Assembly: GCF_004010195.1 (NCBI RefSeq)
Contig: NC_057718.1
Coordinates: forward strand, 45,744,322-45,808,321
Direction: 5' to 3'
Origin: Chiloscyllium plagiosum
Taxonomy: Eukaryota
DNA: 64,000 bases
Below the pieces are notes generated by a model that did no database searches, was not told the origin of the DNA, and saw only the letters and a program-made list of their open reading frames with translations. Of this stretch, positions 5,650-63,458 are shown piece after piece (position 1 is the stretch's first letter; each line of letters begins with the position of its first letter). The position numbers and the translations under genes were made by a program.

Positions 5650-7660
5650 AAAATTAGGTCCTCGCTCTCATACTTCTTGATCTCCATTGTAATGGCGCTC
5701 TCAGCACTTGAATTCACTATTTCCTCCATATTCTAAAATTTGAGTTGAACTGCTCATCAGATCCCCTATCATACTAAACCTACAAGGCTGTAGCTTCATT
5801 CCTATTTTGCTCATGCCATCTTCAAGCTTATCTTGTCCAGAAGATCTTTCTGCTACTTTGCTAATCCTATTGCTGATAAACTGCTTACTTTCCCACCTTG
5901 GCCAGTATGCAAATAGATACATTCAAGAACTAGAAACCTTTATCTTCTCCTCAATAAAATAACCATGCTTAATCTTTTTTTGTTCTTGCAAACTACTGCC
6001 ACATTTTCAACCTTCTTTTGCTCTCCAAAGTCTCTGATATGCTATTGCTTCCTCATTCGTACTACCTCATTCACAACTCCCTGCTATTAGCGATGATTAA
6101 GATTCCTGATTACTGTGATACTACATTGACCATGTAATATTGCATTCCTTAACCTGTCTGCCAAGGAAATTCATTGATGCCATTACCACTAACTATTTCA
6201 ATGCTTTGTTGACAGGTCACTTATCCTACAACTGCAGCTTATTCAAACTTCTGCTGTCTGTATCCTTTGCTATAGCAACTCCTATTTACTCTTCAAATAT
6301 CTGTTTACTGATTGAAACTGGTCGCCAATGATTCAAAATTTTTAAAAATTCATAGTTGTTTATAGCTTTTCATACCTTGTTGCTCTCTAATTTCCTTCCA
6401 CCCCACAAAGGCCCTGGAATTCTTCATTCCTGCATCTTTGGTCTCTTGTGGGTGTAGGTTTGCTCGCTGAGCTGAAAGGTTCATTTCCAGACATTTCATC
6501 ACCCTACTAGGTAACATCTTCAGTAGGCCACCGGATGAAGCACTGTTCCTGCTTTCCATTTAAGTGTTTGGGTTTCTTTGGGTTGGTGATGTCATTTCCG
6601 GTTCTTTTTCTCAGGTGGTAGTAGATTGAGTCTAACTCGATGTGTTTGTTGATAAGAGTTCCGGTTGGAACGCCATGCTTCTAGGAATCCTCGTGCATGT
6701 CTCGGTTTGGCTTGTCCTAGGATGGATGTGTTGTCTCAGTCGAAGTGGTGTCCTTCCTTATCTGTATGTAAGGATACTAGTGAGAGAGCGTCATGTCATT
6801 TTGTGGCTAGTGTTCTGCCTGTTTGTCCAATATAGTGTTTGTTACAGTTGTTGCACGGTATTTTGTAAATGATATTAGTTTTGCTTGTTGTCTGTATAGG
6901 GTCTTTCAAGTTCATTAGCTGCTGTTTTAGTGTGTTGGTGGGTTTGTGGGCTACCATGATGCCAAGGGGTCTGAGTAGTCTGGCAGTCATTTCCAAGATG
7001 TCTTTGATGTAGGGGAGAGTGGCTAGGGTTTCTTGATATGTTTTGTCTGCTTGTTTGAGTTTGTTGCTAAGAAATCAACGGACTGTGTTCATTGGGTACC
7101 CTTTCTTTTTGAATACATGGTATAGGTGATTTTCCTATCCTCTGTGTAGTTCCTCTGTGCTGTAGTGTGTGCTGGTTCATTGAAATCATGTTCTGATGCA
7201 GCTTTGTTTGTGGATGTTGGGATGATTGCTTCTGTAGGTCAATATTTGGTCCGTATGTGTTGTTTTCCTGTAGACACTGGCTTGAAGTTGCCCACTGGTT
7301 GTTCGCTCGGTGTGACACCTAGTGTGATGTCTGGAACGTCTGGAAATGAACCTTCCAGCTCAGCGAACAAACCTACATCCAGAACCTCAACCTGAGCTAC
7401 AAATCTTCTCAAAACTCGCTTGGTCTCTTGTATATTATCCCATATCATTTCATCATTAATGATGGCAACTTCAGCTCCTTTGCTCAAGAATTCCCTCCAT
7501 AATCTCTAGCTCCATCTATTTTAAGGCTTCCCTAATAAAAATCATGTTTTGTTCAAGCTTGTAGTGAACCCACCAAATACCTGCTTCTTTGGCCTCACAT
7601 TCATTTGTGACTACATGTTTGATGCTTTTTGGAACAGTTTTCTACACTAAAAGATGCTGT
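5650..7660 (+). mobile_element. Old L2-like LINE remnant interrupted by the Penelope insertion at 6450-7419
   Basis: Pyrimidine-rich decayed RT / 3' end-like sequence that continues across the 12-bp duplication. Family call is tentative. Confidence 0.4.
6450..7419 (-). mobile_element. Truncated Penelope-like retroelement (GIY-YIG endonuclease) with inverted terminal segments
   Basis: NIIYKIPCNNCNKHYIGQTGRTLAT (GIY-YIG). 6450-6495 is inverted at ~7335-7380. TSD TTGGTCTCTTGT at 6438-6449 and 7420-7431. Confidence 0.9.
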
Positions 7661-7879
7661 ATAACTATAGGTTATTGGTATAAGTTAATTAACATAATAG
7701 AATACCACAGCACAACATTCCTCAAACCTATTCTGTGGCACTGTATTGAACATCTGTGGAATCCATGTACACCACCTTAGCAATCTTGCTCTCCTCAACC
7801 CTCTCCATTACCTCTAATATCTCCAGACATTTAGTTAGACAGTTTTCTCTTAGAAAACGTCAGCTTCCAAGAGATTAAT

Positions 7880-61427: not shown

Positions 61428-62938
61428 TTACAGACAATCCTTCTTTTAAAATAAACTAGTTGGTCTAAAATGTATTAATATCATACAATAGACCATCTGA
61501 TTATGTTGTAAAGCAGATTTGTAAGGCACTGATTTACATGCCATATGGTCTCAAACCAATGTAACGCCTGAGATCTTCCCTCTAGAGATTCTCACAGCAC
61601 ATCTCTCTGTGGTTAGGTCAAACCTTGACTTTGCATGTTTAAGATCTGGCAAATGTGACTGTGATCACAGGCAACAGGAACAAGAACAGTATATTCCCCC
61701 CTTTAGGCCTGCTTCACTCGTCAATTAAATTATGGCCGATCACTTTCTTAACTCCATTTTTCTGGCTTGGTTCTGCAATCCTAGTGTATCTGGTATAACA
61801 TTTCCTCAGTTTTGAAATTTTTAATTGACCTAACTTGACAGCATTTTGATTGAGAGAGTTCCAGATTTTCAATACCCTTTGCATGAAAAAGTACTTTCCA
61901 ATATAACCTTCAGTGGTCTAGATCTGATTATATCATCTTCTTAGAGCTTCTGTCTATAACTGTAGCTCAAGTGGTGATACTCTCATTTCTAGATTCTGGG
62001 TTTGAGGCCCACTTCATTATCTAAACTCAAAAATCAAGGCTGATGTTAAGTTGCTGTGCTGTCTTTCAGATGAAGTGTTTAACCAAGAGACGATGTAAAA
62101 GATCTCTTGGTCCTCTTTTGAAGAAGATTAGTCAAGTTTTCCATAGTGTCCTAGCCAATGTTAATTCCTCAATCGATATCACAAAATTATCTGGTCATTA
62201 TCACATTGCTTTTCATGGGACTTTGCAGTGTATATGTTCATTGTGAAAAATGGAACATAAAACAATTTTTTGACTTTTTTTTCCTTTTCAATCAAATTCC
62301 TCAATCATCTTAAATGCCTTGATGACATAATAAACTTTATGTCTATATGAAGGATCCATAAAGCAAATACATATATTTGCGAAAATGTTCATATTTTAAC
62401 TAGCTTCAGTGTAGGATTAAAGTCCTGTTAGATAATACTTAATCATTTTGTCGTTACATAGCATTTGCTGATTGTACATTACTAACACACATGAGTTTGA
62501 ATAGAATTGTTTTTAAGGAATGTATTCACTGAGTGGAATCCTAGCTAAACTTTTTGAATACCATTACATTTCTGAAAAACCTTTTTAAAAAATGGGTTTA
62601 TGTAGCATTTTTCATGATGATCAGACATCTTGAAATACTTTACAGCAATCAAATACATTTGAAGTGTAGTCATTACTATAATGTAGAAAATATGGAAACC
62701 AATTTGCACACTAAAAACTCCTACAAACAGCAATGTGATAATGACCAGATAATCTGTTACCTGTGATTTTGATTGAGCAATTAACATTGCCTGAAATCTA
62801 CAGAAAACTTGAGTAATCTTCTTCAAAAGAGGGCCAAGCGACTTATTTTGCAACATAGGGTCTTGGTTAAACGCTTCATCTGAAAGACAGCACAACACAT
62901 CCTCAGTTCTTCATATAAGAATCAGCCTTGAACTTTGT

Positions 62939-63458
62939 GTACAAAGTTAAAAATCACACAACACCAGGTTATAGTCCAATAGGCTTATTTGGAAGCACTA
63001 GCTTTTTGAGTGCTGCTCCTTCGTTGGGTGGTTGTGGAGTATAAGAACGTAAGACACAGAATTTATAGCACAAGTTGACAGTGTGACATAATTGAAATTA
63101 TACATTGAAAAAGACCTGGATTGTTTGTGAAGTTTCTCATCTTTTAGAATGGGCATGTTGGTTTCAGTTCTTTCATATGCAAATCCCAGAATTTTCTTAA
63201 AGTAACATTCTCAAGTGAACTTTAACATTTAAGAATGTAACAAACAATATAGGCTTTTTTCAATACAAAATTTCAGTTACATCACACTGTAAACTTTTGC
63301 TATAAATTCTATGTCTTACGTTCTTATACTCCACAACCACCCGATGAAGGAGCAGTGCTGCGAAAGCTAATGCTTCCAAATAAACCTGTTGGACTATAAT
63401 CTGGTGTTGTGTGATTTCTAAATTTCTCCACCCCAGTCCAACACTGGCACCTCCAAAT
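62939..63458. mobile_element. ~520-bp family-B fold-back element
   Basis: 62945-63110 is inverted at 63255-63425. Imperfect TSD CTTGAACTTTGT (62927) / CTTGATTTTTGT (63459). Confidence 0.88.

Follow-up and report, generated by a model that had tools for sequence, protein, structure and literature searches.

Minimal hammerhead motifs of Penelope-like elements in the Chiloscyllium plagiosum genome and the point at which their copies begin

A 64-kb stretch of the Chiloscyllium plagiosum genome (NC_057718.1, positions 45,744,322 to 45,808,321; contig C9 of the 3.56-Gb assembly), referred to here in its entirety as the window, contains fifteen short motifs with the layout of the hammerhead ribozyme. 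These motifs very probably belong to Penelope-like elements (PLEs) that encode an endonuclease and carry minimal hammerheads of type I, with two families (A and B) being Neptune-like, a third (C) an older relative of A, and a fourth (P) Poseidon-like. In families A and B, the 5′ ends of the copies pile up at the front edge of the motif, at an A residue that could well mark the start of the element's transcript. A preliminary description of the window had listed about fifteen motifs, and all fifteen were found as described at their coordinates and on their strands; as independent units, they reduce to about ten insertions in the four families, as judged by self-comparison and target-site duplications.

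Identity of the elements

The link to PLEs comes from the sequence upstream of the motifs. Each motif stands between an open reading frame (ORF) on its 5′ side and the tail of the element immediately downstream, and families A, B, and P run straight into upstream remnants of a reverse transcriptase (RT) and a GIY-YIG endonuclease (EN). For family A, the motif or tail was present at 27 of 29 other loci chosen by protein alone, and a relative (L053) possesses a 526-amino-acid frame with an RVT_1 match above cut-off. The same ORF end was seen at 16 of 37 other family B loci, and the family P motif lies directly 3′ of RT/EN remnants in the window. Since three families lie just 3′ of such remnants, what the window contains are ends of coding elements, truncated or inverted, and not a separate non-autonomous system; the earlier view of them as mostly non-autonomous derivatives is overstated or wrong on this point, and also because the short copies are ragged at their 5′ ends, with no defined short master.

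The placement of the families within the PLEs follows from a linker. In families A and B (in B, in the longer copies), a Cys-X4-Cys-X2-Cys motif lies between RT and EN, and these families are called Neptune-like because it matches the CX2-5CxxC linker that marks Neptune and Nematis (PMC8557442). No Cys linker was seen in the translation of the family P ORF remnant (6530..7300), and on that single feature the family is labelled Poseidon-like. The four families had been considered unrelated, but the tails of A and C can be aligned (local score 67, against 16–20 for the other five family pairs); on the strength of this tail and its 272 exact pattern matches, family C appears to be an old relative of A. 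Family A itself comprises at least three subfamilies (L047, L132, L133, L137, L140, L167), one of which has a 4-bp stem I, while the other two show a U-U mismatch after 2 bp.

Structure of the motifs

Alignments of the four families (31, 55, 37, and 38 rows) have majority rows that all read CUGA(U/A)GA followed by GAAA-NN-UH, with stems that differ and nevertheless pair, one additional base following A9, and a stem II that starts with a G-C pair (G10.1-C11.1); in families C and P, the closing C of stem II has decayed to U. When representatives of the four families are compared, the stem I strands are identical at 4/24 positions and the stem II strands at 10/24, each family still pairing, and the flanks agree at 13/48 and 14/60. 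As noted previously, the families have the core in common, and their stems I and II pair in spite of different sequences; the variants CTA/TGG and ATT/AAT, which had been cited as well, are decay of single copies and not covariation between families.

A strict descriptor (CTGANGA, stem II ≥ 4 bp, GAAA-NN-TH, stem I ≥ 2 bp) was applied to a genome sample of forty 10-kb stretches taken at fixed positions on contigs C1–C11 (388 kb without N). Of the 29 strict matches in the sample, 22 have ACGT or AGCT as the helix III tetramer, and loop III is absent; the earlier identification of the motifs as PLE minimal hammerheads with a palindromic helix III is upheld. The majority row of family C has decayed to ACAT, while ACGT is found in the 272 sequences that fit the family C search pattern exactly. 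The cut triplets are GUC (A and P), CUA (B), and GUU (C). An Rfam scan of the window at E ≤ 10 returned no hammerhead family (12 matches, all below gathering score), a null result not counted against the motifs since helix III is absent here.

Several points weigh against this identification. The link of family C to an ORF consists of two or three weak matches (among 40 distinct loci, two have a faint trace of an endonuclease upstream, and one more has it inverted), the GIY-YIG Pfam match of the family A ORF at 22694..23838 has an E of 0.007, below cut-off, and the clade labels come from one linker motif and not from a tree. A full-length intact element was not recovered, all five of the fetched candidates proving to be N assembly gaps. 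The core identity of 66/66 between representatives is circular, as the patterns required the core; the non-circular support for a shared core is that of the majority rows. The decay comparison considered below is anchored on the tail, and so favours the tail. The minimum-energy fold of the monomer is, or contains, the hammerhead for only three of six representatives (A-CTGT, C, and nearly P), and the dimer form was the cofold minimum for none of the six. This last result agrees with reports that motifs of this kind have low activity in vitro (PMC4209133) and with the protein required by PAc, a Poseidon element of Anolis (PMC11167929).

Where the copies end and begin

Copies are 5′-truncated, often with an inverted 5′ arm and a tail of 30–40 bp, all described features of PLEs (PMC8557442), and often with a target-site duplication. 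An opposite-strand copy lies within 3 kb upstream in 88 of 125 sampled copies, some of these partners being from another family and hence there by chance. In family A the 3′ ends gather around +60 and +98, and in family B around +55 and +94; two internal RT start sites define the PLE tail (PMC11167929), and by analogy two such clusters would be expected here.

At the 5′ ends, a pile-up at the cut site, as expected from a cut-RNA template, was sought and none was found, the starts being spread across the motif with a peak 25–40 nt upstream of the cut. Start positions in the sample are partly alignment artefacts of diverged subfamilies (e.g., L160+8655 and L166+7239), and lists of pattern matches were used instead; these contain intact motifs only, and cannot reveal starts at or beyond the cut site. 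Among the first 100 intact family A motifs listed and classed by eye, homology is lost within 8 nt upstream of CUGA in 67, stops near 25 nt in 3, and continues in 30, and a script check of the first 30 motifs placed 20, 0, and 10 in the same classes. Family B behaves in a like manner, with 46 of 100 listed copies (by eye) ending within 12 nt, 2 at 13–36 nt, and 52 beyond. The 5′-start contrasts have p < 1e-8 in both families. Mapped reads show this edge as well, in depth and in diverse loose ends at L167:8830-8831, with other subfamilies contributing. A splice acceptor was rejected as the cause of the edge, there being no AG before ATTC in the long copies. Among the papers listed by literature searches on Penelope hammerheads, promoters, and capped starts, none describes a 5′-end pile-up at the motif in its title or abstract opening, bioRxiv supplements and most subscription papers being outside view.

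One locus (L214; C1:2771684-2771764) has an intact family A motif fused directly to endonuclease coding sequence, with the untranslated stretch skipped; the junction reflects an internal deletion or a template jump that landed on the motif's front edge.

An extra G and the putative transcript start

The initiator consensus of promoters is YYANWYY. The 5′ pile-up has at its centre an A whose pyrimidine-A context agrees with this consensus, and PLE promoters have been described as internal and of the initiator type (PMC2377424). In addition, many short family A copies have G-ATTC in place of the C-ATTC of long copies (contig C1 lists; L160, L170, L190, L201, L203, L205). In the family A subfamily with C before the A in its long copies, 26 of the 42 short copies that lack this C have G instead, against about 26% expected (p = 1e-6, counted by eye), and G stands before the putative +1 A in 14/19 as compared with 2/14 one base further in (p = 0.001). 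The other family A subfamily gave 11 G versus 1 A, and family B gave G in 3/3. An extra G at full-length L1 junctions has been ascribed to the messenger RNA cap (PMC11702581).

From these observations, that the family pile-up marks a transcript start at that A seems slightly favoured, and a cap origin for the extra G has about an even chance. Taken together, it is an evenly balanced proposition that transcription begins within the 5′ strand of stem I or immediately ahead of it, at an A resembling an initiator, so that the hammerhead would be transcribed first, and that roughly half of the intact copies, or more, are run-off complementary DNAs (cDNAs) of capped, uncut RNA with the G of the cap included.

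It is also conceivable, if somewhat doubtful, that the pile-up originates from stalling or fold-back of the RT, whether on the structured motif itself or on the preceding pyrimidine tract. Many of the junctions are inversions adjoining the motif, and the inverted tails are purine-rich and a source of many Gs, which weighs against a cap-derived G; once inverted junctions are removed, the excess shrinks to 9/19 (p = 0.037) or to 12 G versus 8 A (p = 0.07). Moreover, in the two G-ATTC junctions inspected for an untemplated G by way of the target duplication (L190 and L201), the G lay within the duplicated target in both, so that it is not demonstrably untemplated, and microhomology with the target partly confounds a cap-derived reading. 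Stalling sits poorly, however, with ends that fall after the RT has passed stem II, with the scarcity of stops in the next 25–40 nt (3/33 in A and 2/54 in B), and with the G excess as counted over all junctions.

Short copies, core decay, and the fate of insertions

A different reading, and an unlikely one, is that the short copies of hammerhead plus tail form a self-propagating non-autonomous family, SINE- or retrozyme-like, each being transcribed from an internal promoter of its own and moved in trans with the help of PLE proteins. Most intact family A motifs belong to short copies (67/100 listed; 20/30 by script), some of these copies have clean duplications, PLE promoters are internal (PMC2377424), and animal retrozymes have been derived from the terminal repeats of PLEs (10.64898/2026.07.22.740005). 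Such a family would be hard to reconcile with 5′ ends that are ragged (0–8 nt) and vary from copy to copy, with short and long copies fitting the same motif pattern, or with a window whose single tandem motif pair (53598/53643) is damaged; no separate short master was seen.

Far less probable is that the host keeps the ribozymes active, for example to cut intronic RNA of the PROX1-like gene that occupies much of the window. There is no sign of host selection keeping the core in scattered copies: in 55 sampled family A copies that cover the whole motif, core mismatches number 101/550 and non-CpG tail mismatches 220/1566, so that decay is no slower in the core than in the tail, and the core is intact in 28 of the 55. 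Host use could be suggested by the estimated 2.7×10^5 strict motifs genome-wide (an extrapolation) and by the position of two core-intact motifs (6487 and 22469) on the sense strand within introns, but both of these have lost the palindrome, the best copy (35327) is antisense, and monomers went uncleaved in vitro in the founding study (PMC4209133). Family A sequence does occur in RNA, with 1,614 reads on both strands in sequencing run X19; these reads cross the cut site with continuous depth and no peak of read starts or ends, in a library poorly suited to show ends. Run X20 gave 0 family A reads, and none of the indexed RNA runs was listed as containing the sequence.

Within the window, all 11 core bases are kept in 6 of the 15 motifs (6487, 22469, 35327, 51409, 53598, and 53686) and changed in 9. 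With a core base lost in nine motifs, and a core no better kept than the tail, the term "ribozyme-bearing" used earlier was overstated. An intact core, both stems, and a palindromic helix III are combined in 35327, 51409, and 53598; in 51409 the closing pair of stem II is G-U, and in 53598 the tetramer is ATAT. In family B, AGCT was counted by eye in 96/100 of the matches listed and ATAT in 0/100, and the ATAT of 53598 looks like a decayed AGCT.

These results can be accommodated in a simple scheme. The shared core would be maintained by selection on active master elements, and not on their dispersed copies, if the masters need it at some step, perhaps the trimming or inactivation of their RNA. 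Internal RT initiation on uncut RNA has been described in PLEs, and such motifs are reported to cleave weakly, as dimers or with an element protein (PMC4209133, PMC11167929). The many copies of 90–130 bp could then arise when the RT initiates within the tail of an uncut RNA beginning at stem I and continues until this template ends, while long copies would presumably derive from read-through RNA of tandem units. After insertion, copies decay with no sign of selection.

Abundance in the genome

Exact family patterns were found genome-wide 41,844 times (A), 13,493 times (B), and 272 times (C), with 0 matches for the reversed controls. Family P had no copy in the 388-kb sample, and the genome-wide pattern counts covered A, B, and C. 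The sample contains about 125 tail-bearing copies (a few possibly double-counted), or about one per 3 kb, in keeping with the dense seeding proposed from the window. Strict motifs would number about 2.7×10^5 per genome, as extrapolated from the sample if contigs C1–C11 are typical. By comparison, about 4,000 motifs were reported in the coelacanth and about 9,000 in Xenopus with that study's own descriptor (PMC4209133), so that a load of roughly a quarter of a million intact-looking motifs is far above published vertebrate counts.

Finally, that the motifs are chance matches to a descriptor that is indeed short, with core bases missing at 9/15 sites, is so improbable as to be dismissed, given 5 strict matches in the window against a mean of 0.025 (maximum 1) in 200 dinucleotide shuffles, 29 in the sample against 0 in each of 20 shuffles, and the thousands of exact genome-wide matches to set against none in the controls.

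Insertions in the window

The ten or so insertions vary in their completeness, and exact target-site duplications of 12, 14, 13, 13, and 16 bp flank five of them; for the remaining five, the duplication candidates are merely short or mismatched. The sole family P motif (6487..6526, minus strand) has an intact core with a helix III tetramer that is now ATGT. Just upstream of it is the 3′ part of a broken PLE ORF (approximately 6530..7300, minus), comprising the RT C-terminus and a GIY-YIG-type motif, and an inverted copy of the tail (7317..7419, plus) lies at the element's 5′ end. The whole element (6450-7419) is flanked by an exact 12-bp duplication (6438-6449 / 7420-7431).

Family A is represented by the motif pair 14260/14978 and by 22469, 35327, and 50641. 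The pair occupies the left (14260..14291, minus) and right (14978..15009, plus) arms of an inverted insertion (14166-15067), both motifs having G12>A, with endonuclease remnants at 14429-14629 (minus) and 14679-14807 (plus) between them. The motif at 22469..22500 (minus) has an intact core and a helix III that is now ACAT, and lies about 190 nt 3′ of the end of a frameshifted Neptune-like ORF remnant (22694..23838, minus) with RT (YIDD), Cys linker, and GIY-YIG. Two short insertions start at the hammerhead itself. The first (35327..35452, plus) starts at stem I of the intact motif 35327-35358 and has an exact 14-bp duplication (35313-35326 / 35453-35466), while the second (50641..50735, plus) starts at the motif 50641-50674, which has A15.1>C. 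The first is nested within a copy (35216-35673) of another short interspersed repeat, other copies of which occur at 29655-29845 and 59429-59737.

Family B accounts for 51409/53173, 53598/53643/53686, and 62996/63338. A large insertion (51324-53255), with a 13-bp duplication (51311-51323 / 53256-53268), has a core-intact motif with AGCT and a CUA site at its 3′ end (51409..51443, minus) and a G5>A motif in its inverted 5′ arm (53173..53207, plus). It retains a broken GIY-YIG C-terminus (52597..52870, minus), followed downstream by a CA-rich untranslated stretch (about 52267-52590), and is interrupted by a piece of another retroelement (about 51805-52280). A small insertion (53513-53769; 13-bp duplication 53500-53512 / 53770-53782) holds three motifs, at 53598-53632 (minus), 53643-53675 (minus), and 53686-53720 (plus). 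The two minus-strand motifs form a direct tandem with a 45-nt period, the geometry required by a cis dimer, and are damaged, as the 53643 unit has C3>U and the tetramers AGCT and ATAT are mismatched. In the inverted pair 62937-63457, the left-arm motif (62996..63030, minus) has three core changes and the right-arm motif (63338..63372, plus) has U4>C.

Family C comprises 38085 and 61327. The former (38085..38110, plus) is strongly decayed, with two core changes and an inverted partial partner at about 37995-38082. The latter (61327..61365, plus) has A6>G and lies within an insertion (61203-61427) that includes an inverted tail piece and is flanked by an exact 16-bp duplication (61187-61202 / 61428-61443).

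The host gene and neighbouring features

PROX1-like exons occur on the minus strand at 39026-40825, 26940-27050, and 16809-17057. The latter two are Pfam HPD exons, and exon 16809-17057 matches Prospero homeobox protein 1 in PDB (E = 6e-37); a 600-amino-acid frame among the exons had no Pfam match. The final HPD exon is located about 84 kb to the left of the window, which puts roughly the leftmost 46 kb of the window inside the gene, with the insertions there in its introns. The set of three HPD exons recurs in a second Prospero-domain gene at C10:15578666-15615503 (minus). Two decayed pieces of long interspersed nuclear elements (2685-4026 and 7854-9943, plus) encode a GDSL-lipase-like ORF1 and an endonuclease domain, with the second spanning the sole N gap of the window (9320-9646).

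Relation to known systems and significance

Minimal hammerheads in the pseudo-long terminal repeats (pLTRs) of metazoan PLEs, including Xena, Poseidon, and Neptune of fish, were reported by Cervera and De la Peña in 2014 (PMC4209133). The arrangement is therefore already published and of a known kind, and its finding here is annotation. Shared with the 2014 set are the type I form with no closed helix III, the palindromic positions 15.2-16.2, the extra base between A9 and stem II, the G10.1-C11.1 pair, and the occurrence of several families per genome, mostly as single truncated copies, with opposite-strand pairs. The host lineage differs, the word "shark" being absent from the searchable supplements of that paper, as do the stems, with a stem II of 4–7 bp and, in family A, a short stem I (2 bp, followed in two subfamilies by a U-U mismatch). 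Copy number differs as well, at the values given above and with different descriptors.

Another parallel is PAc (Frangieh et al. 2024, PMC11167929), which likewise has two tail end points 3′ of the hammerhead, and in which uncut RNA is the main template and no RNA-seq reads begin at the cut site. PAc cleavage was demonstrated with the element protein, whereas that of the hammerheads described here is putative, and a genomic 5′-end pile-up at stem I, as seen here, is not described in the available text of that study. Animal non-LTR retrozymes (Li, Clavereau, and Pollet 2026, 10.64898/2026.07.22.740005) are derived from PLE pLTRs and carry type I hammerheads, with one chondrichthyan case reported. 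Retrozymes are tandem arrays with a motif in each unit, in contrast to the dispersed single or inverted insertions of the window, where no tandem array with a complete hammerhead per unit occurs and the sole tandem pair has a C3>U unit.

The position at which copies begin bears on the role of PLE hammerheads. It argues for uncut, probably capped RNA as the template, which agrees with the in vitro result of 2024 (PMC11167929), and the 5′ ends of the copies single out an exact base as the putative transcript start, which in family A is the A four bases before CUGA and in family B lies about eight bases before it. If this is correct, the copies are evidence that the usual template is not cut RNA, and cleavage would strip a capped leader of about 32–37 nt from the transcript. 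The ribozyme may then be a decapping device or off switch for the element's RNA, and not the unit-length processor for circles that was proposed in 2014.

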